64,000 bases of DNA from the IMG/VR virus record IMGVR_UViG_3300030376_006484, positions 1 to 64,000 of that record; one strand, written 5' to 3'. Positions 5,743-52,645 of this stretch are shown piece after piece. The stretch is from a virus. Lineage: Duplodnaviria; Caudoviricetes. Each line of letters opens with the position of its first letter. Position 1 is the first letter of the stretch. Both the position numbers and the translations under genes were made by a program. The notes under the pieces are model-generated. The model did not search any database and was not told the origin of the DNA. It saw only the letters and a program-made list of their open reading frames with translations.

Positions 5743-6324
5743 TTAATTATTAGCGTACCATTCACCACAATACTCAGCAGAAACATCATAGCCATTTTCT
5801 ATGTGTGGAGTCTTACAAGTAGTCTTCCACCTTTCGTCTGTGTCATCAAAACGACCTATGAACATATAAAATTCATCAGTTGTCCATTTGTCAAAGGATT
5901 TTTTTAGACCCAAATATGTAGAATAGGTATCTCCACCATCATTTGCTGAACCTTCACCCCATGACATATCCCATGAATCTGCTTGAATCACCCCGTTCAA
6001 ACAATCAATGGCCGTTAATTGTCGGTAGTCATGATTCTCCACCTTTAATACTAAGAAATAATCTTCATCCGAGCGACAATCTTTATCATCATCGGAAACA
6101 GTAAATTTAATCTTATGATAAGGGGGTTCTTCTACAATATCAACAGAAGAATTATCCTCGCTAATATGTGTTATGCCTATGCCTATAACTGCTATAACCA
6201 TACTCACTACAAATAATACTATTATAGGTTTTAATAACTTGTTAGAATAATGGTTATGTGTCACATCAACTGTAACTACGCTATCATGTATGTTGTTTCT
6301 TTCGTATTTGTCTGTGTCAATCAT
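5743..6324 (-). CDS. Single-pass membrane protein with MIDTDK leader
   Basis: TM helix IIVLFVVSMVIAVIGIGI followed by a Cys-containing acidic domain. Confidence 0.65.
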   Translation of the reverse strand: MIDTDKYERNNIHDSVVTVDVTHNHYSNKLLKPIIVLFVVSMVIAVIGIGITHISEDNSSVDIVEEPPYHKIKFTVSDDDKDCRSDEDYFLVLKVENHDYRQLTAIDCLNGVIQADSWDMSWGEGSANDGGDTYSTYLGLKKSFDKWTTDEFYMFIGRFDDTDERWKTTCKTPHIENGYDVSAEYCGEWYANN

Positions 6325-6569
6325 TTTTCTTCACCCGTAAATAGCCTATGAAAATGCGATTGGCCTTCACTGTTGTAGGCACGATAAAATTCCATCATCG
6401 TTTCTTCACCAAAATACTCTCGGACTAAAACGACAAAGCCACGCAACCGCTTGACTTCGGCAAGTAACTCCATTCCCATTGCTTGTAAGACTTCATAGAG
6501 GTGGTCATCGTGTTGTAGCCATTCTTCGGTTTGTTGTAGCCATTCTTCGGTTTTGTCTGTGTCTATCAT
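6321..6569 (-). CDS. Hypothetical protein, MIDTDK family
   Basis: MIDTDK leader and ELLAEVKRLR motif shared with 27077-27316. Confidence 0.65.
   Translation of the reverse strand: MIDTDKTEEWLQQTEEWLQHDDHLYEVLQAMGMELLAEVKRLRGFVVLVREYFGEETMMEFYRAYNSEGQSHFHRLFTGEEK
6511..6552. repeat. Perfect 21-bp tandem duplication (TGTTGTAGCCATTCTTCGGTT x2)
   Basis: Read directly; encodes the duplicated TEEWLQ. Confidence 0.9.
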
Positions 6570-8479: not shown

Positions 8480-8759
8480 AATCTACAACCCCTAAATAAT
8501 GATGCTCTATTCCTTCATGTTTCAAGAAAAATTGAATATTGGATACTACAAGGGATTCATCTAAACTAGAAAGATACACTTCTATATCCGCATTAGTATA
8601 TTTGAAGAATACTCTACTTGTGTCTTTTTTGTGTCTTAACCAATGGGCATTGAACAATTCTAAAACCATTCTTTGATTCACCGAAATATCGTCTTCTAAA
8701 GAGAAGACTAGTTTTTTCTTGTTTGGTAGTTTATCAAAGTCCTTCATACAATCCCTCAA
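8469..8759 (-). CDS. Hypothetical protein
   Basis: Translationally coupled ORF in the operon. Confidence 0.55.
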   Translation of the reverse strand: MRDCMKDFDKLPNKKKLVFSLEDDISVNQRMVLELFNAHWLRHKKDTSRVFFKYTNADIEVYLSSLDESLVVSNIQFFLKHEGIEHHYLGVVDYVI

Positions 8760-10285
8760 AATAAGTTTATTACATCGTCAATAGTATTTATTTGACTTAG
8801 AATTTTGTCGTCTCTAATTCTATCCTTTCTAGGAAATCTTAGACCTAGTGTTCCATTAGTATTCCTAGTAACTGCGTCAGCAGTAACAGAGATAATTATT
8901 GAAGGAGTTATTGAATGATTCTCAGTAGATGCGTTATAATTAGAAATAAGCCTACGACATTTAGAGGTTAAAGAAATTAAGTCTTCATCACTAAAACCAA
9001 TACCAACTCTACCAATTGGTTCATATCCGCTATCGGAAGAAGATGATAGTACACTAATTTCAAAACTAGAAAATAGGTTGGTATTAGAATTCTCGCCATA
9101 CTTAGCACCTGTAATCACTACATCTAAATCAATTTGAGCAGGTTTGTACTTAATCCACTTCCTCTTAGCAGGGTGATATTCGTCGCCCATATCTTTGACC
9201 ATGATGCCTTCAAAACCTCCTGCAATCGCTTGATTGTAAAAGGCGAAAGGGTCGCCATCAACCACCCGTAGGGCTTGATGAGGCAAAGAAGAGAAGGTTT
9301 CAAGCCGTACTCTTAAAGGATAGGCCATGATAGATACTCCATTCATTTTCAAACAATCAAACACTACCCATTCTACAGGACACTTCAAAAGCAAATCGGA
9401 ATTTATGTTCTTTGAGTGGACTCTTTTATTCATTTGTTGATGAGCAACTGGATAACCGCTACCATCAATCGGATATATTTCTCCATCTAGAATAAAATTG
9501 TCTTCTTCATAGGCAAGTATCTTTTCTATTACATCGGGGAATTGGGGATTAACTACCTTTCCTCTTCTGTTAAAGATAATAACAGAATCCTTCTCCTTAT
9601 GTATTTGATACCTATTACCATCGTACTTAATATCATAAACTGCATCCTCCGGCCATTTCTTGAAAGGTTGGACTTTAGCCAACATCGGTGAAACAAATTT
9701 ACCATGCACTAGATTTAGTGGCGGGCTTCTATTCATTTCATAGTAAGAGGTAACTGAAACTATACTGTTGAGAGAACAGTCCCGTTGTACTTCTTGTTGA
9801 GTTTTATTGTATTTCTTTGCTAGAACCTTTTGTATTGTTTTTTCGCCTATCTTGTTATTGGGGGTTCTAATCCAAAACTTGACAAACCACTTTCTTTCGT
9901 AGTCCGACATTGATAAGAAGGCTTCTTGTATTGTGTCAAAGGATAATGACCTAGAAGAACAGTCCAATTCTAGAAGTTGAATAATCCTTTTAAGACTATA
10001 CTCTTCTTCCGAATCAAAGGTTTCCATTAAAGATACTGCTTCTCCAATGTCGTTAGTTGCATCATACAATGCGTCTAATTCTTCATCAAATATTCCAAAG
10101 AAAGAGGATAGCCACTTCTTTGCTTTGGTTAATCCAATATTATTCTTTTCTAAATCTAGGCTTAGAATCTTTACTAGGTCTGTTGGATTAAAATTCTCCA
10201 TTTCCTTTGTAAGTCGGTTCACTTGTGTTGTCGGCGTTTGGTCGCAAATCGCTTCCATTAGTCGGGCTAGTCTTTTCATTGTCAT
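8756..10285 (-). CDS. lig: ATP-dependent DNA ligase (replicative)
   Basis: PMLA, KYDGNR, FILDGE, VFD, EGIMVK, WIKYK, LRFPR...RDDK motifs. Confidence 0.95.
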   Translation of the reverse strand: MTMKRLARLMEAICDQTPTTQVNRLTKEMENFNPTDLVKILSLDLEKNNIGLTKAKKWLSSFFGIFDEELDALYDATNDIGEAVSLMETFDSEEEYSLKRIIQLLELDCSSRSLSFDTIQEAFLSMSDYERKWFVKFWIRTPNNKIGEKTIQKVLAKKYNKTQQEVQRDCSLNSIVSVTSYYEMNRSPPLNLVHGKFVSPMLAKVQPFKKWPEDAVYDIKYDGNRYQIHKEKDSVIIFNRRGKVVNPQFPDVIEKILAYEEDNFILDGEIYPIDGSGYPVAHQQMNKRVHSKNINSDLLLKCPVEWVVFDCLKMNGVSIMAYPLRVRLETFSSLPHQALRVVDGDPFAFYNQAIAGGFEGIMVKDMGDEYHPAKRKWIKYKPAQIDLDVVITGAKYGENSNTNLFSSFEISVLSSSSDSGYEPIGRVGIGFSDEDLISLTSKCRRLISNYNASTENHSITPSIIISVTADAVTRNTNGTLGLRFPRKDRIRDDKILSQINTIDDVINLF

Positions 10286-15599: not shown

Positions 15600-16424
15600 T
15601 TACCATATCCATTGTGTTCCTTGTCCTTTTATTTCGGACTCTGTTTTACCTACTGTTCGTAGGAGTTTTTTTGTTGTATCTCTACAAGTGCGACTAGTCA
15701 CACCTACAACCTCACCAACTTCTTTTTGAGTTAGTTGTTTAAATTCGCAAAGATTTGCTATGTAGATTATCCCTGCTACTGCGCTCTTATTTAGAGTAAG
15801 AGTACGCATTTCGTATTCCCTCTCAAAGAAGGAAAGTAACATGCTACAGGTACTAGCAAAATGTCTGTCCCCTAATTGAAGGGAATACTTCTCTACCAAA
15901 GAATCAAGAGATTGAATAAAGACTCCACTATTCTTAAAATGCTTAGAAATCTTCTTGGCTACTTTAGCAACCAACTTTGGGTTTGCACCATATTCAGCAC
16001 AAACTTCTTTTAAAGTAAAAGGTAAATTTCTCTCTCTTAGTACATAGTAAATTAAAGCACTAGCCCTATCTTCATAAGTAGATTGACCAAATACCCCTGC
16101 TCTAAAACAAGTCATGTAGGCGTTTTCTACTCTCTCCATTTGGCTCTTTGAATTAGTCAAAGAAGACATTAACATTTTAGAGAAACCTAATCCCACATCT
16201 ACATGACTTCTTTTACCTCTTTCATATCTATGAACAGGCTTAGAACCTAGAGTTTTATCTACATGCCTAATTATTTCTCCATCATGAGTAAATAAAGAAA
16301 CCGTTTGGTCAAAGGGTTCAGTTACTACAATCAAACCACAGTCTTGACATTCTTTCTCGCCCATGTATTCGTTGTACGAAAAATCAGTACTGTTACATTC
16401 AGTACAATTAAGCAAGGTTCTCAC
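15600..16424 (-). CDS. tfb: Transcription initiation factor TFB/TFIIB homolog
   Basis: Zn ribbon CTEC...GEKECQDCGLIV, two cyclin repeats (ASALIY...PFTLKEV; AGIIYIA...LTQKEVGEVVGVT). Confidence 0.88.
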   Translation of the reverse strand: MRTLLNCTECNSTDFSYNEYMGEKECQDCGLIVVTEPFDQTVSLFTHDGEIIRHVDKTLGSKPVHRYERGKRSHVDVGLGFSKMLMSSLTNSKSQMERVENAYMTCFRAGVFGQSTYEDRASALIYYVLRERNLPFTLKEVCAEYGANPKLVAKVAKKISKHFKNSGVFIQSLDSLVEKYSLQLGDRHFASTCSMLLSFFEREYEMRTLTLNKSAVAGIIYIANLCEFKQLTQKEVGEVVGVTSRTCRDTTKKLLRTVGKTESEIKGQGTQWIW

Positions 16425-20358: not shown

Positions 20359-20442
20359 TGTCGGAGGCAGGATTTGAACCTGCGAATCATTAAGAACAGG
20401 AGTTTAAGCCCTGCGCCTTTGACCAAACTCGGCTACTCCGAC
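20359..20442 (-). tRNA. tRNA-Leu (UAA)
   Basis: GTCGGAG acceptor, TGG D-loop, CAGGG-CTTAAAC-TCCTG anticodon arm, long variable arm, GGTTCAAATCC T-arm; no encoded CCA. Confidence 0.92.
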
Positions 20443-20451
20443 TTGAATAGG

Positions 20452-20524
20452 CGAGCGTATCAGGATTTGAACCCGAATCCTCGGCTTAGAAGGCCAAGAT
20501 GCTATCCTATTACACCATACGCTC
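20452..20524 (-). tRNA. tRNA-Arg (UCU)
   Basis: GAGCGTA/TACGCTC acceptor, TTGGC-CTTCTAA-GCCGA anticodon arm, GGTTCAAATCC T-arm. Confidence 0.92.
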
Positions 20525-24217: not shown

Positions 24218-24474
24218 TCAACACCCAACCCAATGTCATACATTTCTTTGTGTTCTAGAACATCAATCCATCCCTTATTTACAGGAGAATATAATTGCTT
24301 CTTGATTGAACCATCCTTCAAAATATAAAGGCAAATGAAACCCGACTCATCTTGATAATTACATATCAAGGAATTATCCGGCCCCGCATACCACCTATCT
24401 TCAAATGTCCACCCTACTCCGCCTACAGCGAAGTGTCGTTCTTGCTTCTCGTTTATTTCTATTATTATTTGCAT
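24214..24474 (-). CDS. Hypothetical protein (probable start MQIIIE)
   Basis: GGAGGT SD upstream of the internal ATG; the longer start overlaps a hairpin-rich leader. Confidence 0.5.
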   Translation of the reverse strand: MQIIIEINEKQERHFAVGGVGWTFEDRWYAGPDNSLICNYQDESGFICLYILKDGSIKKQLYSPVNKGWIDVLEHKEMYDIGLGVE

Positions 24475-24489
24475 GTTTTTACCTCCTAT

Positions 24490-24630
24490 CAAAGGTGAGA
24501 GTAGGGCCACACTAAATAAATTAGTGATTATCTTAAAAGGCTCCATAGCCCTACTCTCTGTCTCTAACGGATAAAACCCGATTGAGACACCTAGACCTCC
24601 CCATTTTGTTTATAAGGGGTTCCCCCCCAT
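24490..24630 (-). promoter_or_regulatory. TATA-box promoter and structured 5' leader of the leftward operon
   Basis: Minus-strand CTTATAAA near 24619-24626; hairpins TGTCTC...GAGACA and GAGAGTAGGGC...GCCCTACTCTC. Confidence 0.5.
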
Positions 24631-24649
24631 TTCGGGTTAAGGATATTGG

Positions 24650-25140
24650 AGAAAAAGTATAGCATTATCAAAATACCATTGAAGTAAATAGTACTAGCAT
24701 TTTTACTACTTAGGTAAGACTAAACACCAATAGTATTTTTTTATGTAAAATATTGTTATCTTAATTATTATCATATTATTCTCTATTCGTAAACGAAGCA
24801 CTGCTCCATAATTCTCATTATTCTCATTTTTCTCTAGGGGTGTCAATTTCTCGCACCCCATATGAGAATAATGATAAAGATGAGAATTTGAAAAATGCTC
24901 TTTAGATATATGATAATAATGATAATATGATAATAATATATTAAAATATACTTATTTTCTTCAAAAAGACACTTTTTGCCCATTTATTATTCTCACTTCG
25001 GATGAGAATAACATGAGAAACTCAAAATTCCACACATATATGTTATATACATAAGACCAATTGAAAACCTGTAAAACAATATCAAGAAATAACAAACACA
25101 ATAAAAAGGAGAGTTATGAAGGAAGGATAGATATGTGATT
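24650..25140. other. AT-rich non-coding region with ATTCTCA/TGAGAAT repeats; candidate replication origin
   Basis: No ORF, very low GC, about 7 copies of TGAGAA(T) in both orientations, TGATAATAA repeats, at the strand switch. Confidence 0.45.
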
Positions 25141-25202
25141 TAGGTATTATGCGTAAGACGCTTTGTAGATGAGCATTAAATACCCTACCATGAATCTTGG
25201 TT

Positions 25203-25830
25203 GTCTTAGCCCACCACACACGGATAGATAAGGAAAAGGTGACGACCATGACAAAAGGAAAGAAAAACGAAACAAAAACAAGCGAAGCGGCTCAAGCCGT
25301 GGATTATTCAAAATACACCGCCCGATTGGGTGACATTCAAGGAGTCCTTGAAAAGGCTCCAAACGCCAAACTTCAAATGGCGGTGGATGACATTAATGGG
25401 GCTATTGAAGCGCAACTTGATGAGAAATTGTGCATTCAACTAATTGGTGCATTGAAAACCTACATTCAACTTGAAGGTGAAGCGGGAGCAATCTACGCCG
25501 ACGCTATGCCTCAACGACTACGCTCAAGCGACCCACTCGCTCAAGCACACTATACACGAATTGATGACGAATTGAACACATTGATGAACGACAACGCACC
25601 ACTTCTTGAAGTGATGTTTAGTCTAAAAATCGGTATGCGAGTTAAAGAAGGAGAAGAACCCACCATTGACGACTACCGTTCAACACTACGAAAGAAGAAT
25701 AGAGCCGTGAACAAATACAACAAAACCACTTCAACTACTGCTCAACCAACGGGGGACTCAAGCGAGGCGTGAAGCCCCGCTAACCCATGAAAATTAACCC
25801 TTAAGCCGTGTGTGGTGGGTTAAGGCTCCA
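25203..25830 (+). ncRNA. Panhandle element A: 21-bp 5'/3' stem plus 3' UCCA enclosing an ORF
   Basis: GTCTTAGCCCACCACACACGG (25203-25223) pairs with CCGTGTGTGGTGGGTTAAGGC (25806-25826), followed by TCCA. Confidence 0.7.
25248..25772 (+). CDS. Helical hypothetical protein, paralog of 28634-29149
   Basis: AGGTGA SD before ATG 25248; MAVDD...LDEKL...YADAMP versus MAVED...IDDKL...YADYLP. Confidence 0.75.
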   Translation: MTKGKKNETKTSEAAQAVDYSKYTARLGDIQGVLEKAPNAKLQMAVDDINGAIEAQLDEKLCIQLIGALKTYIQLEGEAGAIYADAMPQRLRSSDPLAQAHYTRIDDELNTLMNDNAPLLEVMFSLKIGMRVKEGEEPTIDDYRSTLRKKNRAVNKYNKTTSTTAQPTGDSSEA

Positions 25831-25835
25831 TTTAT

Positions 25836-25855
25836 GGCCCCCCTTACGGGGGGCT
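25836..25855 (+). terminator. GC-rich hairpin downstream of panhandle A
   Basis: GCCCCCC-TTAC-GGGGGGC. Confidence 0.55.
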
Positions 25856-25883
25856 TAAGTGGGGTTGTGTCTTGTCATTACCC

Positions 25884-25928
25884 CAAAGATTATCATTAAG
25901 CGACACAACCATATGGTATGTACTTTGA
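25884..25928. repeat. CAAAG...ACCATATGGT...CTTTG palindromic element, copy 1
   Basis: Read directly; upstream of ORF 25965. Confidence 0.7.
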
Positions 25929-25964
25929 ACATACCCCACTTGAACCAAATGAAAATAATAGGCT

Positions 25965-26273
25965 ATGAGAGTAAATTTCAGCCTAGAAGAATTGAATGCA
26001 GAAGAAGTAAGAGTAAACTACCAAACTAATTTAAGCGGTAGAGCGATGAACATAAGGACGACTTATGTTTATAGTTCCGAAGAAGATTATTGGGCGGCAT
26101 ACGACCTATTAGCAAAGCATAAACTAACTAGTGGATTCCAATTCCACTTTGACCAACGAAACGACACGAATGCAATAGTGACCGTAACAGAAGTTTCATT
26201 AGAATGGTACAGAAAAGAACAAAAACGAAAACAAGAACAGGGGGATTCACTGAGTAGTGAAACCAATGAGTAA
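25965..26273 (+). CDS. Hypothetical protein
   Basis: ORF downstream of the palindromic element. Confidence 0.6.
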   Translation: MRVNFSLEELNAEEVRVNYQTNLSGRAMNIRTTYVYSSEEDYWAAYDLLAKHKLTSGFQFHFDQRNDTNAIVTVTEVSLEWYRKEQKRKQEQGDSLSSETNE

Positions 26274-26682
26274 AATAAACCCATATCTAGACATATGGGA
26301 TTTTTTTACTGTTGAATCGTCCACTACCCCCACAACTACAAAGACGATAACAATTAAAACAATCAAACAAGAGGAATAAAAATGTATAAAATAATTAGAT
26401 TTAGATTTAACGGGCCAAACCGTACAATACAAAGAGGATTAACGCTAGAAGAAGCACAAGCCCACTGTCAAAGAGAAGATACTCACGGAGACGGTTGGTT
26501 TGACGGATATGCGGAGGAATAAAAATGAACAAAAAAATAGAAGCAACACTATACAAACTATTAGATTATGTCACTAGGACACTAAGGTATTACAGTATTA
26601 ATGATGACCATTGGAAGGTAGCACTTAGCCTAACAAGACATACTGCGAGAGAACTAATCGCATTAGTGGAGAGTGAAGAAGA

Positions 26683-27084
26683 ATGACTAGATTTCTAACA
26701 CACAAAGAATTTATGGAAATGACTGACCATTGGAGTTACACAGAAAAAATAGCATTCCTATTAGAGGATAGCGAGGTTTTAGATTCTATTCTAAAACACA
26801 TAGAATGCTCATGGAATGGTCGCTACACAATCATTAATCGTGAAACTAATGAAGCGGAAAAGGAAGACATTTACCATGTTACAAAGGAAGAGGTTAAGAT
26901 TCAAGAAGAGATGAACAAAAACAAGGAGGTTATGCTCAATGGATTTAAACAACAATTGCATAGTTTATATTCCTGCCTTGAACGAGTTGATGATGATGCG
27001 GCATTTGAGTGGGCAACGAAGAATGTAGGCGAAGATGATATGTGGATTGTTAGAGGGACAGGAAGGAGATGGTTGAATGATTAA
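26683..27084 (+). CDS. Hypothetical protein
   Basis: GGAGAGTGA SD, coupled to the next ORF. Confidence 0.6.
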   Translation: MTRFLTHKEFMEMTDHWSYTEKIAFLLEDSEVLDSILKHIECSWNGRYTIINRETNEAEKEDIYHVTKEEVKIQEEMNKNKEVMLNGFKQQLHSLYSCLERVDDDAAFEWATKNVGEDDMWIVRGTGRRWLND

Positions 27085-27316
27085 CACAGACAAATACGAA
27101 AAATACAAACCCACACAAGCCAACTACCAAACAAGCGAGAGGTACATCAAGGAACTGCTAACAGAAGTCATGCGGTTGCGTGGGATATTGGGCGACATTA
27201 TAGCCATAGATGAATGGGGCGGAGATGGTAAAGATGTTGGTATCACCATCACATGGTACGGAGATTATACTTTCAGTGGATGGTTAAACAAAGTTTACGA
27301 TGGGGTGACTGAATGA
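27077..27316 (+). CDS. Hypothetical protein, MIDTDK family
   Basis: MINTDKYEKY...ELLTEVMRLR. Confidence 0.65.
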   Translation: MINTDKYEKYKPTQANYQTSERYIKELLTEVMRLRGILGDIIAIDEWGGDGKDVGITITWYGDYTFSGWLNKVYDGVTE

Positions 27317-27540
27317 TTGACACAAACAACAATAGACACAATTTAAAGATTAGAATAGAGACAGAGGAATGTGTCTTTGAAGAGTATTGGGAGGCTTAAT
27401 CTTGGCTGAAATACAGACTCCACAGGGAACTGCGACCCTGTTATATATCGCAGAAAGTGACGGAAATATTGAGATAGTCTTCTTAATAGACTAATTAATA
27501 TCCCCTTTAGTCGGCTTTTTAGCCGATTATCGGGGTATCC

Positions 27541-27575
27541 CAAAGTAATACCATATGGTTGTACTGATACTTTGA
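27541..27575. repeat. Palindromic element, copy 2
   Basis: CAAAGTAATACCATATGGTTGTACTGATACTTTG. Confidence 0.75.
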
Positions 27576-27973
27576 CAGAAGTAAAAAACCCTAAGAGGGG
27601 CCATAAGACCCCCCTTAAGATAATTATTAATCCTCTTTAGGATTACAAACCTTACAAGATTTTAAACCTACATGACCTGCTAGGTCACACACTTTTGTAA
27701 CTGATTCTACTCGCATTTTAATTTCTCCTTATGATATGTTGAATGGGATACCCTCACTGACCGCCTTCTTTCTTTAATTGACCATTTGGTGCGCCTGTAT
27801 TTACTAAGTGTTCTTGGGCTAACATTGTCTAGAATATTGCTTTCTCTCTTTTGTTCGTACTTCGGTTCTTTAGGTGCTTTCTTCGTCGCTATTGGGTTCT
27901 TTTCGGAAGGTGATTAACTAGTACTCGCCTTCTTACACCCAACTAAACTCTATTCGTTTAGATAAGGTAGCCA

Positions 27974-28003
27974 CAAAGTTACTACCATATGGTTTGGCTT
28001 TGA
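27974..28003. repeat. Palindromic element, copy 3
   Basis: CAAAGTTACTACCATATGGTTTGGCTTTG. Confidence 0.75.
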
Positions 28004-28039
28004 TGAACCCCGAAGGGGGCTTTCGCCTAATATTTTCTC

Positions 28040-28363
28040 TTATTCAACCTTGATAAGTGAACCGTTCCACAATTCACCATTTAAGAACCATTCAAAATTT
28101 TTCTGCACGATATGAACATTAGGAAGGCCGTTCAAGCGTTCCTTTGTGGTTGTGGTTGCATGTCCTGCCGAAGTAATCAATAAGCCCTCACCTTCAGCAT
28201 AAAGAGCAATTGTATTTTCAAAAAGCGTAAGGTAGGTTATACCCGACCGTGTATATACTTCGGTATTCCCTCGCTTGAATTTTTCTCTATTCCTAAAAGC
28301 CCGTATTGCGTCCCTTGTTATTTTTCGCATCTTATTCACCTCTATTACTTTTGCAAATAGCAC
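28040..28363 (-). CDS. Hypothetical phage protein (probable start MRKIT)
   Basis: GAGGTGA SD before MRKIT; TTTTKERLNGL...VQKNFEWF pattern. Confidence 0.65.
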   Translation of the reverse strand: MLFAKVIEVNKMRKITRDAIRAFRNREKFKRGNTEVYTRSGITYLTLFENTIALYAEGEGLLITSAGHATTTTKERLNGLPNVHIVQKNFEWFLNGELWNGSLIKVE

Positions 28364-28513
28364 AATTCTTTAAATTAAACACATGGTTGAATTGGGTGCA
28401 GTTAGTCGTAACTATACCATAATATTTAGCCATTATTTTTATTTCTTCAATATTTTTCATTTTTATCTCTCCGATTACCTAAATGAATTAGTATTCCTTA
28501 GATAGGGTATGAA

Positions 28514-28543
28514 CAAAGTACCTACCATATGGTTGCACTTTGA
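28514..28543. repeat. Palindromic element, copy 4
   Basis: CAAAGTACCTACCATATGGTTGCACTTTG. Confidence 0.75.
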
Positions 28544-28578
28544 TGCACACCTTATGACTCCCATAAAGGGAGCCATAA

Positions 28579-29189
28579 TGGAGCCTAGCGGGGAAGTTAG
28601 ACTGACTAATAATTTCTAAGGAGCCTTAGCCCCTCAGTTGTCCTCCTGTACGGTTTCGTTTGATTCGTTAATGTGTGACTCGTAGTTGGTCGTTAGACTT
28701 TCCAACTGTCCGTCCCAAACCTTGTTCTTGAAGTCATCTTCAAGTCGGCGTGTGGTAGAGTTGTAAAGGAAATCAACAAGGGTTTCCTCTGTGTAGTAAA
28801 TGATGTTCTCTTTGTTCTTCTTTCGGAAAAGATACACTAGAGCGTCGGGGTTGTGGGTTAGACCTGCGACAACAAAGGAAGTAATGCTGTCCTTAATTGC
28901 AGTAAAGGCAGGACTTAGTGCGTTGTTTGCATCTCGCTGTCCCGACTTAGGCAAGTAATCTGCGTACCCATGAAGGGTTGCAGTAGTACGACAAGCCGCA
29001 TACAATGATGCTCGTAGTTTGTCGTCAATTGTGGTTAAAAGACAGTCCTCAACGGCCATTACGACTCGTTGGTTTGCATCCTTACCTTCTTTCTTCAATT
29101 GAGCCGATAGTGGCTCTAGTCTGTTCGTTATTCGTTCTAAATTTGACATGATATTTCACCTTCCGTCTGTGCTAACTTCCCCGTTAGAC
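28579..29189 (-). ncRNA. Panhandle element B: 18-bp 5'/3' stem plus 3' UCCA enclosing an ORF
   Basis: GTCTAACGGGGAAGTTAG (29189-29172) pairs with CTAACTTCCCCGCTAGGC (28600-28583; one A-C mismatch), followed by TCCA and a hairpin (28578-28552). Confidence 0.7.
28634..29149 (-). CDS. Helical hypothetical protein, paralog of 25248-25772
   Basis: AGGTGA SD; shared motifs with the paralog. Confidence 0.75.
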   Translation of the reverse strand: MSNLERITNRLEPLSAQLKKEGKDANQRVVMAVEDCLLTTIDDKLRASLYAACRTTATLHGYADYLPKSGQRDANNALSPAFTAIKDSITSFVVAGLTHNPDALVYLFRKKNKENIIYYTEETLVDFLYNSTTRRLEDDFKNKVWDGQLESLTTNYESHINESNETVQEDN

Positions 29190-29226
29190 ACCCAAGTAAT
29201 CGTATACTATTCATAGGGTTGTAGCC

Positions 29227-29251
29227 CAAAGTACTACAACCATATGCTTTG
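29227..29251. repeat. Palindromic element, copy 5
   Basis: CAAAGTACTACAACCATATGCTTTG. Confidence 0.65.
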
Positions 29252-29442
29252 CATCCAATTTTTATTTTTATTTATTACTGTTTTACGGTATTAAAAGTAC
29301 TATTTCCGGTAATAAACGGCCTATTTGCATACTATTAATACTATTTTAGTAATACTATTACCACTATTCGGGGTAGTTTCGCCCCCGTACAATTTGGGTT
29401 AAGGTTATATCTTGATGGCCTCTGCGTCTATTTAGTGACGGC

Positions 29443-29649
29443 ATGACTAACACGGCAGAAATGTTACAGTTATTCTTAGAGATTAAAACAGAGTTACAAG
29501 AAGTTATTAGTAGACTTAACAATAAGAAAGATACAATAGATAGTGAAATACTAGTTAGAATAGTTAAAGATATTAATAAGTTAAAGACAATGATAACACA
29601 AATACAAGAAGAACGCAGTCCAAAACAAAAACAATTAGGAGATTATTAG
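29443..29649 (+). CDS. Small coiled-coil protein with PIP-box-like C-terminus
   Basis: Ends PKQKQLGDY; TATA-like GGTTATAT at about 29403-29410. Confidence 0.55.
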   Translation: MTNTAEMLQLFLEIKTELQEVISRLNNKKDTIDSEILVRIVKDINKLKTMITQIQEERSPKQKQLGDY

Positions 29650-29757
29650 AATAAATAGTATTAATTTTATCCTGTAAATACATTAAATAGTAATAAAAAA
29701 GGCGGTATAGTGATAAAAAAATTCGGCGTAATTTTTGAAATATTTTTAGGTGGTATT

Positions 29758-50176: not shown

Positions 50177-52645
50177 ATGCCCTCTACAGGTTTAACTATC
50201 GGGAAAGTCAAAGCCCCCGTTTCCGACGAAATACTACATCTGTTTGAGAAGGTTAGAGTATCTTATCTATCTGCAAAGGAAGATAAGAAAGAATACGGTG
50301 GTCGTTGGAGAAACACACTAGAAGAAATAAGCGAAGCATTTGATTCAATTTCTCCTTTGGGTAAAGAAATTAATGTTTTCTTAGACGAAAGGCATTTAGA
50401 AGATAATGATTCTAAAGACCCCGAAAGCACTACTGCTAGAATTATTTACGAAGCCATTAAAGATATGCGTTTCAAATCGGAAGAAGTAGAAGACCCCTTC
50501 GCTGACCGATTCAAAGGTAATGTGTTAGAAGCATTACTATCCGATGTTGGTACAATGGTCAAATTTATTCATTATGCTATTCGTTCCGATGAGAAAGCCT
50601 TACCTGCTGATTTCTACAAATCTAAAGAATTACAAGAAGATGAAATTACTGATGGATTGGAAGGACTTGATTTAGTAGTTGATGATGTTCCTTTGTTTAT
50701 CATTGAGCATTATGGTGACGATAAGGATTCTAAGAAGGTGGAAGCACAATTCAAAAAAGCAAATAAGATACTAGAAGAAATGATGCTATCAAATTCTTCG
50801 GAAGAAGATTTAGAAGAATTAGTAGAGGTTGATTTAGAAAAGGCCGAGAAAACTGAAAAGGCATCTTCTCAATTTATTGTTCCTAACAAACCCATGTACC
50901 GAATCTTTGACATTGATGACATGAATGAATTGAAAGGGTTTAGTGGAGAATATGTTGTCCAAGAAAAATATGATGGTATGCGAATACAGATTCATAAAAT
51001 AGATGACAAAATCAAAATCTACTCCTATAATGAAAAGGACATTACAGACAAGTGTTCCGAACAGGTCAAGGAATTACAGAAAAAGGCATACGGTGATTGT
51101 ATCCTTGATGCTGAGTTAATTTTGTTTGATGGAGAGAAAGCCCTCCATAGGGCAGATACAATAGCCCATGTTTTCAAGAATAAGTACAAAGAGGCTAGAC
51201 TAAGAGCGCATGTTTTTGATATTATGAGACATGAGGCTCAAAACCTTACAGAAGAACCCCTAAGAGATAGAATCAACATACTGTTCAACAATTATTCTTC
51301 CAAGTCTTCTTCGGATTTGGTTTACCCTTCAAAGAAAGATACTCGCATTGCTGACTCTCTAAAAGATATAGCAGAATACGCAGAAGAGATTATGGAAATG
51401 CCTACTTCGGAAGGAGTAGTCATTAAAGATATTGAATCCACTTACTTTATTGGTACTAAGAAAAACCCCAAGTGGGTTAAGTGGAAGAAGTTTGTAGATT
51501 TAGATATGGTCGTTCTAGACAAGAAATCTACTAAGTCCGGTCTTTACTCTTACACTTTAGGAGCAGGGCCAGTTGATGATGAGGACGAAGGTAAGCACAT
51601 TGTTGAACAGAACGATAGAAAATACATGAATGTTGGTAAGGCACTTAATACTAAGATTAATGCAAAGGTCGGCCAAATTATTAGAGTCAAAGTAGATGAG
51701 GTAAGAGAGGATAATGGTAGGTTTACTCTTTACTCGGCTAAGGTTATTGAAATACCCGAAGTTGAATTACCCGACAAAATAGTAACTTTACAAATGCTTT
51801 CTCAAGATACTAAACCTAGTATTAAATACAAAACTATGGCTTTGAAAAAAGGAATAACAATCAGTGATGGAATTCACGGCACTGCAACTTTGATTGCTAA
51901 AAGCATGGATGGCTTTACTTTGTACGGATTTAAAGAAACTAATCTTATGGCTAAGAATGCAATTCATGATTTAGATATGTGGAAAAAGGAAGCAGAAGAA
52001 ACTATGAAAAGTCTACAATCGGAAATATATGTGGGAGTTATCAATCTAATAAAAAGAAAGGGGCCACAACCAATAACAGAGGTACATGACTTCTTGATTA
52101 GGAATTATGGTAGCCAATACGAAACAGTATTAGAAAGCGATAAGAAAGAACTACCCGATTGGTTGAACCGTAGGGAAGACATATCAATATCCAACGGTAA
52201 GGTTTCAATTGACGATTCTAAAATAATTAAAGAGAAGCCTTCTCAATTTAAAATTTATTTGAGAAAGGACGGCAACCTTAATTTTTCAGTACAGCATAAA
52301 GAAGAATTATTGATGTGGACTATTGATTTAGAAACTGATGATGATATATTCGCATTGTTTGGTAAAGCAGTAAAGTATCCTGCGGAAATATCCGAGCAAC
52401 AAGATACTCATAAATTAATAGACGAAGGAGATGTAGAGGTAGGTGTTCAAAGGCATGGATACCATGAGTACATTTTAGACGGTAATAAGTTTGAGACTAA
52501 ATTACATTTCCGAGTAGTAGATATTAAGGATAAGGAAAGTTGGGTTGCTTGGACAGGATATGAGCAAAAACCTGTAGATAAAGATACAGACGAAGGCGTT
52601 TGGAATATCTATGAAGATAAGTACAAAACTCTAAAATTAGAATAA
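50177..52645 (+). CDS. Second ATP-dependent DNA ligase, multidomain, in the head module
   Basis: QEKYDGMRIQIH, CILDAE, HVFD, EGVVIKD, WVKWK motifs; long acidic N-terminus and an extra C-terminal domain. Confidence 0.9.
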   Translation: MPSTGLTIGKVKAPVSDEILHLFEKVRVSYLSAKEDKKEYGGRWRNTLEEISEAFDSISPLGKEINVFLDERHLEDNDSKDPESTTARIIYEAIKDMRFKSEEVEDPFADRFKGNVLEALLSDVGTMVKFIHYAIRSDEKALPADFYKSKELQEDEITDGLEGLDLVVDDVPLFIIEHYGDDKDSKKVEAQFKKANKILEEMMLSNSSEEDLEELVEVDLEKAEKTEKASSQFIVPNKPMYRIFDIDDMNELKGFSGEYVVQEKYDGMRIQIHKIDDKIKIYSYNEKDITDKCSEQVKELQKKAYGDCILDAELILFDGEKALHRADTIAHVFKNKYKEARLRAHVFDIMRHEAQNLTEEPLRDRINILFNNYSSKSSSDLVYPSKKDTRIADSLKDIAEYAEEIMEMPTSEGVVIKDIESTYFIGTKKNPKWVKWKKFVDLDMVVLDKKSTKSGLYSYTLGAGPVDDEDEGKHIVEQNDRKYMNVGKALNTKINAKVGQIIRVKVDEVREDNGRFTLYSAKVIEIPEVELPDKIVTLQMLSQDTKPSIKYKTMALKKGITISDGIHGTATLIAKSMDGFTLYGFKETNLMAKNAIHDLDMWKKEAEETMKSLQSEIYVGVINLIKRKGPQPITEVHDFLIRNYGSQYETVLESDKKELPDWLNRREDISISNGKVSIDDSKIIKEKPSQFKIYLRKDGNLNFSVQHKEELLMWTIDLETDDDIFALFGKAVKYPAEISEQQDTHKLIDEGDVEVGVQRHGYHEYILDGNKFETKLHFRVVDIKDKESWVAWTGYEQKPVDKDTDEGVWNIYEDKYKTLKLE

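Follow-up and report, generated by a model that had tools for sequence, protein, structure and literature searches.

Two facing genes and their complementary flanks

The DNA analyzed here, referred to as the window, is a stretch of 64,000 nucleotides (nt) covering positions 1 to 64,000 of the IMG/VR virus record IMGVR_UViG_3300030376_006484 (Duplodnaviria; Caudoviricetes), and is part of an 86,150-base virus record. Its central region, between a replicative and a structural gene block, carries two open reading frames (ORFs) that face each other, ORF A on the plus strand and ORF B on the minus strand. In each case, a segment upstream of the gene is complementary to a segment downstream of it, such that the two could form a long-range helix around the whole reading frame. 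Each ORF is described below together with its promoter-like motif, stem arms, tail and hairpin as unit A or unit B, with the following features:

25176-25182 (+): TATA-like box of unit A, TTAAATA, 20 nt to the first base of the 5′ arm; sequence reading
25203-25223 (+): 5′ arm of stem A, starting with GTCT; paired in the minimum-free-energy fold; repeat search and stem scan
25248-25772 (+): ORF A, 174 amino acids (aa), without an assigned function; ATG start backed by homolog alignment
25806-25826 (+): 3′ arm of stem A, ending with AGGC; sequence reading, repeat search and stem scan
25827-25830 (+): tail TCCA of unit A, a lineage-specific version of the mostly C-rich 4-nt spacer between stem and 3′ hairpin
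25836-25855 (+): GC-rich 3′ hairpin of unit A, 8-bp stem, loop TTAC; sequence and fold
29207-29218 (-): TATA-like motif of unit B, CCCTATGAATAG on the minus strand; sequence and relatives
29172-29189 (-): 5′ arm of stem B, GTCT from 29189; sequence, repeat search and B-family alignment
28634-29149 (-): ORF B, 171 aa, all-alpha, without an assigned function; remote paralog of ORF A
28583-28600 (-): 3′ arm of stem B, AGGC ending at 28583; sequence, repeat search and B-family alignment
28579-28582 (-): tail TCCA of unit B; sequence reading
28552-28578 (-): 3′ hairpin of unit B, 11-bp stem, loop TTTAT; sequence and fold

Stem A pairs 25203-25223 with 25806-25826 over 21 positions, 19 of which are Watson-Crick pairs and 2 of which are G.U, whereas stem B pairs 29189-29172 with 28600-28583 over 18 positions comprising 16 Watson-Crick pairs, 1 U.G pair and 1 A.C mismatch. 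Both 5′ arms open with GTCT and both 3′ arms close with AGGC, which is followed directly by TCCA and then by a GC hairpin. Both stems are preceded by the motif CTTGG(T/G)T, found in the window in two exact copies and one with a single mismatch, and a TATA-like box lies 19-20 nt upstream of each 5′ arm. According to the folds, TCCA is able to pair with an upstream TGG(G) over a 1- to 2-nt bulge in both units, and it is not certain that it stays unpaired, since this depends on the position of the transcription start.

The complementarity stands out from the rest of the window in several respects. Whole-unit minimum-free-energy folds retain the long-range stem in units A and B, with z scores of -5.65 and -5.75, respectively (20 shuffles each). 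In a window-wide scan of stem lengths, the 21 bp of stem A were longer than anything found in 10 shuffles (largest, 20 bp). We also ranked all ORFs of at least 60 aa that start with ATG by the energy with which the 48 nt upstream can pair with the 56 nt downstream. Among the 129 ORFs compared, ORF A ranked first (-46.6 kcal/mol) and ORF B second (-39.3 kcal/mol), ahead of a next-best value of -28.6 kcal/mol and a median of -12.4 kcal/mol.

The closing helix is conserved and covaries in relatives

DNA of relatives was obtained from related-locus and genome searches, which gave a total of 31 units with enough flanking sequence. These represent 26 distinct units (winA and winB from the window, L numbers for the relatives) in 12 stem-sequence clusters, most of which have wholly different arms. 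One locus was left out as too short (L029) and three as partial matches (L039-L041). The contigs of the profile hits P0016, P0027, P0028 and P0030 are outside the unit set, and some of the first-round homologs P0001-P0014 may overlap the fetched loci.

A helix closing the 5′ untranslated region (UTR) onto the 3′ UTR was present in all 26 distinct units, i.e., in 12 of 12 clusters. With one representative per cluster, duplexes between cognate 5′ and 3′ flanks had a mean energy of -36.9 kcal/mol (range, -30.4 to -46.2), compared to -20.1 kcal/mol (standard deviation, 4.6; best, -31.3) for the 132 non-cognate combinations. For each of the 12 representatives, the cognate flank was the best partner both by row and by column, and none of 100,000 permutations matched the observed cognate mean. 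The longest uninterrupted helix, determined for 11 representatives, spanned 11 to 18 pairs in the cognates, as opposed to a maximum of 11 and a mean of 7.25 in the non-cognates.

The same picture emerged from the B-family alignment A10, which contains five sequences (winB and L004-L007). Standard pairs occupy 94.3% of its cells versus 81.3% in shuffles, none of 500 reaching as high, and only 36.5 to 50.5% of the cells were paired when the partner was slid. Changes on both sides were found in 7 of the 21 pairs, and the covariation score was 0.400 versus 0.166 (0 of 500 shuffles). RNAalifold recovered the long-range helix unaided from six other units. The most divergent unit, L046, a paralog detected at a profile E value of 1.4e-5, has a 15-bp stem of unrelated sequence that bears the same end signature. 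On these comparative grounds, we regard the helix as shown to be a conserved, covarying feature of the A/B gene family.

These results bear on an earlier note on this DNA, made from the sequence alone. Its claim that two paralogous ORFs are each enclosed by a long-range stem is verified, for the stems by the sequence, the folds and the flank-pairing ranks and for the paralogy by family profiles. Its observation that the inner sequences of the two stems differ while remaining complementary is confirmed as well, as is the expected covariation of the stems in homologs, by both the cognate duplex energies and the B-family alignment. Homologs without flanking complementarity, which that note had named as evidence against its proposal, were not encountered: all 26 distinct units pair.

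Helix ends and predicted transcription start

The ends of the helix combine constant and variable features. In 8 of 12 clusters, the helix starts with the pairs G-C, U.G and C-G (GTC.../...GGC); in L035/L036 and in L016, U-A takes the place of the terminal wobble. Next to these conserved GTC/GGC pairs, a small internal loop or bulge is seen repeatedly. The 3′ arm is followed by a 4-nt spacer, C-rich in most units, and then by a structured 3′ element, which is a GC hairpin in most of them. The spacer reads TCCA in 4 of the 26 distinct units (winA, winB, L003 and L004), corresponding to 2 of 12 clusters and one viral lineage, and is mostly CCCC, CCCT, CCTT or ACCC in the remaining units. Since TCCA is confined to the window and to its 93-95% relative, to which L003 and L004 belong, the sequence comparison indicates that NCCA is a lineage variant of the 4-nt spacer and not a conserved tRNA-like end.

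The identity of the outer ends of stems A and B (GTCT/AGGC) is explained by a start sequence that several promoters of this genome share. The motif TTGG(G/T)TGT around the predicted start is common to the promoters at 25197 (+), 29195 (-), 24594 (-) and 27942 (-). For instance, the leader of the leftward operon (24470-24596, -) lies 20 nt downstream of a TATA-like box and has the same start sequence as both closing stems. Its GTCTC opens a local hairpin and not a long-range helix, a second hairpin of 11-13 bp comes after it, and the z score is -4.43. The GTCT/AGGC ends, which had been taken for a tRNA acceptor end, match this shared promoter start sequence and are therefore not a special acceptor.

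B-like relatives share a conserved CCCTA(T/A) motif, and the distance from its first base to the 5′ arm is 29-34 nt. Given the position of the 5′ arm relative to the TATA-like or CCCTA(T/A) motif, transcription is predicted to start at the first pair of the helix or within a few nt of it.

Two further observations concern the 3′ side. In L019-L022, some 25-50 nt after the stop codon, the terminal GGC of the 3′ arm is also part of the 5′ half of the next hairpin, the 3′ half of which ends with GTC; arm pairing and hairpin pairing are mutually exclusive. A conserved (C/T)TTAAGG(T) motif follows the hairpin in many units and is found at 25856-25862 and 28545-28551 in the window.

Genes A and B belong to a family of predicted helical proteins

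No relation between A and B was shown by BLASTP (E value, 3.4). The A-family and B-family profiles nonetheless match each other in hhalign (91.6%; E value, 8e-7; 101 columns), and we therefore consider ORF A and ORF B to be remote paralogs at the level of sequence profiles. They are the only two copies of the family in the virus record, and both occupy conserved places in four related records. The joint A+B profile retrieved 19 clusters at an E value of 0.001 or lower among 1.84 billion representatives. ORFs of the family are 160-190 aa long.

The AlphaFold model of B is all-alpha, with a pLDDT of 89.9. Neither A nor B belongs to a Pfam or PHROG family, and tblastn of B against phage records gave no match. 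The B model had no Foldseek match in PDB at an E value of 0.001 or lower (best, 1.2), the best VIA-align Z score of 6.6 fell on generic helical bundles, and the ESM Atlas rows were uninformative. A family search of cellular genomes likewise returned no match, as did a search of those genomes with the viral ligase, and the profile member P0030 had no match in viral contigs.

Genomic context

The leftward replicative block encodes a clamp-loader ATPase, an ATP-dependent ligase, a UvrD-type helicase and a cpn60/GroEL-type chaperonin, along with tRNA-Leu and tRNA-Arg. In the rightward structural block, a second ligase gene is embedded among genes for terminase, portal, protease, capsid and tail tube. 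The two ATP-dependent ligases are located at 8756-10285 and 50177-52645, and cpn60 matches the PHROG family "chaperonin groEL" at 8.3e-109. Philosof et al. describe group B magroviruses of Marine Group II archaea as having replicative and structural modules, two ligases, a chaperonin and tRNA-Leu/tRNA-Arg (PMC5434244). The window fits a group B magrovirus by gene content as compared to this published description.

Several other elements of the window were noted. The 274-aa ORF at 15600-16424 (-) has a weak TFIIB-repeat match (E value, 3.1e-4; 21.1 bits, under the 23.6 cut-off) and, judging from this similarity, may be a virus-encoded TFB-like factor for viral promoters. A palindromic element, CAAAGT .. 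CCATATGG .. ACTTTG, is present five times in the central region (25904-25920, 27546-27562, 27980-27996, 28523-28539 and 29235-29251). All five copies are placed between the 3′ hairpin of a unit and the TATA-like motif of the following one, and in most related loci the units are flanked by the element too. Its possible roles are those of an operator, of an upstream promoter element or of a bidirectional terminator. At 27575-27950 (-), a further unit combines a promoter-like motif and the same TTGGGTGT start with a long leader rich in A; neither a significant fold (z score, -0.80) nor a closing stem was found for it. A 20-position complementarity between 5804-5823 and 6478-6497, which on the minus strand starts with GTCTTACAAG and ends with ..AGAC followed by TCCA, was considered as a further closing stem. 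Because both arms fall within coding sequence and stems of such length also occur in shuffles, it was rejected as probably due to chance.

A proposed helix closing monocistronic mRNAs

We propose that, in a magrovirus-like virus of marine archaea, A and B are separate monocistronic transcription units. In each of them, the start of the 5′ UTR would pair with a segment of the 3′ UTR into a helix of 15-24 bp that loops the entire mRNA, and the mostly C-rich 4-nt spacer and a stable GC hairpin would stand directly 3′ of it. The helix would act in the sense RNA and, together with the 3′ hairpin, may hide both RNA ends from exonucleases or endonucleases. Such hidden ends would make for long-lived messages, and the stop and start codons would be brought near each other. 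That an RNA closing helix exists appears to us very probable. Overall, we favor a closing helix of monocistronic mRNAs that joins 5′ UTR and 3′ UTR and protects both ends, and hold this to be the probable explanation. That end protection or stability is the main role of the helix is suggested more tentatively, by analogy, at a little under an even chance.

A helix at the RNA level is favored, among other points, by the location of both arms within the predicted transcription unit and by the U.G difference between the arms, which is kept in eight clusters. A count of 42 G.U versus 7 A.C was rejected as a strand test because it is inflated by a fold that favors G.U and by related sequences. Assembled reads on the window consist of one 494-nt contig (28670-29163), which falls within ORF B, and of a short piece of 35 nt (27066-27100); they contain no joints, have no ends at the stems and leave the stems uncovered.

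A role in translation was evaluated through the pairing of the Shine-Dalgarno region in 16 units. In 13 of them, including winA (0.91) and winB (0.83), a fraction of at least 0.15 of the shuffles had an energy equal to or lower than the observed one. The three other values were 0.038 for L010, 0.026 for L006 and 0.074 for L027, such that 2 of the 16 fell below 0.05. Sequestration of the Shine-Dalgarno region as a general rule was thus rejected, being significant for L010 and L006 alone. Since the ribosome-binding site is usually free, the helix is not mainly a translational lock. As a separate observation, a CCTCTC-like segment in the first 10-20 nt after the stop codon is complementary to the Shine-Dalgarno region in a B-like subset (L010, L005-L007, L027 and L032-L035), and pairing of the two would lengthen the helix inward.

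Several observations weigh against the proposed closing helix or narrow what it can explain. The start and end of the transcript and the formation of the helix in vivo are predictions, and the stability role is drawn by analogy only from bacterial cases. By length alone, the uninterrupted 16 bp of stem B are within the shuffle range of the window-wide scan. Alignment A10 contains four non-standard cells, namely A.C in winB, A.A and C.A in L004, and A.A in L005. When single mismatches in the helix interior were counted symmetrically over 25 units, 2 were of the G.U type, 3 of the A.C type and 5 of other types. There is no excess of G.U, and the strand-specific evidence therefore comes mainly from the conserved terminal U.G. 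Several units have 3-7 bases upstream of GTC that might, across a small loop, pair with the C-rich tail; if this pairing is real, the transcript would start further upstream than the TATA spacing suggests. Finally, the distance from the stop codon to the 3′ arm varies from 2 to 34 nt and that from the 5′ arm to the ATG from 13 to 33 nt; a single translational mechanism does not account for all units.

The closing helix may also have a more specialized function. Its constant junction consists of the small loop and the G-C, U.G and C-G pairs, followed on the 3′ side by the mostly C-rich 4-nt spacer and the hairpin. A dedicated factor of the host or the virus that seals, trims or ligates selected viral mRNA ends could recognize the helix and this junction. 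We consider this unlikely; if true, it would represent a previously unknown route to closed, long-lived archaeal messages.

Alternative explanations

A processing stem would be a helix cut by a host or viral endonuclease that trims or excises the mRNA, which might then be ligated into a circle. The geometry is that of the stems that enclose a whole functional RNA in ribosomal RNA (rRNA) processing, and the small loop or bulge that recurs beside the GTC/GGC pairs could be seen in this light. In archaea, the flanks of rRNA form such a long-range helix around the complete RNA, and bulge-helix-bulge stems yield circular intermediates (e.g., PMC7714728). Unlike those stems, however, the stems drawn for 25 units lack two 3-nt bulges spaced 4 bp apart, showing only bulges of 1-2 nt or internal loops of 1x1 to 2x2. 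The enclosed RNA is also an mRNA with its own promoter, a TATA-like box lying directly before the stem of each unit, and excision from a longer precursor is therefore unneeded. Taken together, a processing stem appears improbable.

The units could otherwise be latent mRNAs akin to hok, in which the closed form is inert or poorly translated until 3′ trimming removes the 3′ arm. The hok mRNA of plasmid R1 and other type I toxin mRNAs are strongly stabilized in a closed form, tac/fbi, whose covarying pairs join the extreme 5′ end to the 3′ UTR and so enclose the whole ORF (PMC9841398). The viral units share this architecture, with a 5′ end placed here from the TATA spacing, and the pairing of the Shine-Dalgarno region with the CCTCTC-like segment in a subset of units also speaks for such a latent state. 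Against it, sequestration is not general, the ribosome-binding site being free in most units. The products are helical proteins of ~170 aa and not small membrane toxins, and no antisense RNA was evident, though none was specifically sought. The known cases also differ from the present one in that the host here is an archaeon and the element a virus. A hok-like latent mRNA is accordingly no easier to credit than a processing stem, and the closing helix that protects mRNA ends is retained as the favored explanation.

Yet another possibility is that the arms are inverted repeats acting in DNA, as recombination sites of an invertible or mobile cassette that are kept alike by gene conversion. As in invertible switches, the arms flank a whole gene and the promoter lies outside the left arm. 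The interior mismatches show no G.U bias, and gene conversion could mimic covariation. However, orientation with respect to the upstream TATA-like motif and to the downstream tail and structured element is uniform in all 31 units, and both paralogs keep their places in the four related records. In 8 of 12 clusters, the same position differs between the two arms (T versus the complement of G), a difference that homogenization would erase, and the arm sequences are wholly different between clusters, unlike the binding sites of a recombinase. Pfam scans of 30 window ORFs, which were not exhaustive, revealed no recombinase. No direct repeat adjoins the arms in the window, and hence the target-site duplications that the earlier note would have read as marks of transposon ends are not seen. 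An origin as DNA repeats is thus very improbable.

The explanation that fares worst is the one that the earlier note put forward, a tRNA-capped viral mRNA with a UCCA end. It holds that the end of the stem and NCCA mimic a tRNA acceptor, on which RNase P, RNase Z, the CCA-adding enzyme or a synthetase would act. Transfer RNA-like structures end the RNAs of plant viruses, and transfer-messenger RNA is comparable, with a helix followed by NCCA. Both window units do end with AGGC-TCCA after a helix starting with G-C, as do L003 and L004, yet this resemblance is limited to the window lineage, with TCCA in just 4 of 26 distinct units and 2 of 12 clusters. The conserved hairpin located 3′ of the "CCA" means that no RNA 3′ end lies there unless the RNA is processed. 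No T-arm-like element is present, and TCCA itself can pair with the upstream TGG(G). ARAGORN found tRNAs in the window at 20359-20524 only and none at units A and B, while a Rfam search of 24400-29700 at an E value of 5 or lower returned four chance-level, non-tRNA matches, none of them tRNA-like; models of tmRNA gave no match either. The lack of conservation thus largely refutes the tRNA-like reading at the sequence level, and we consider it barely credible. From the roles listed in that note, stabilization would be the best reading, whereas a tRNA-like cap is unsupported.

Relation to known systems and significance

Besides hok, the closest parallel to an mRNA closed by its own UTRs is the Bacillus subtilis hbs mRNA, in which a 14-bp pairing between 5′ UTR and 3′ UTR modulates cleavage by RNase Y (PMC5737220). 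Both hbs and the viral units involve a long-range pairing of UTRs on a small monocistronic mRNA, and in hbs this pairing modulates the access of ribonucleases. The hbs mRNA is, however, the product of a single bacterial gene for which the nucleases, RNase Y and J1, are identified, whereas the viral helix is longer (15-24 bp), is located at the predicted 5′ end and is kept across a whole gene family. Cyclization sequences and panhandles of flaviviruses, influenza viruses and bunyaviruses are also formed by 5′-3′ complementarity, on RNA genomes, where they serve as replication promoters. Here too, 5′-3′ complementarity would close a long RNA, but the virus has a double-stranded DNA genome and the closed molecule would be an mRNA.

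To our knowledge, little is known about how archaea protect mRNA ends and control mRNA lifetime, and we know of no such information for Marine Group II archaea, which are uncultured, or for their viruses, which are abundant. Our literature search turned up no account of helices of this kind in viruses of archaea. The gene family itself might be listed in the supplements of PMC5434244. The fact that the closing helix is kept through complete turnover of the arm sequences provides strong comparative evidence that pairing between the two ends of an mRNA is under selection in an archaeal system. The units are thereby testable molecules for work on archaeal RNA decay and for the reading of metatranscriptomes, and may find a use in the design of stable mRNAs for archaeal expression systems.

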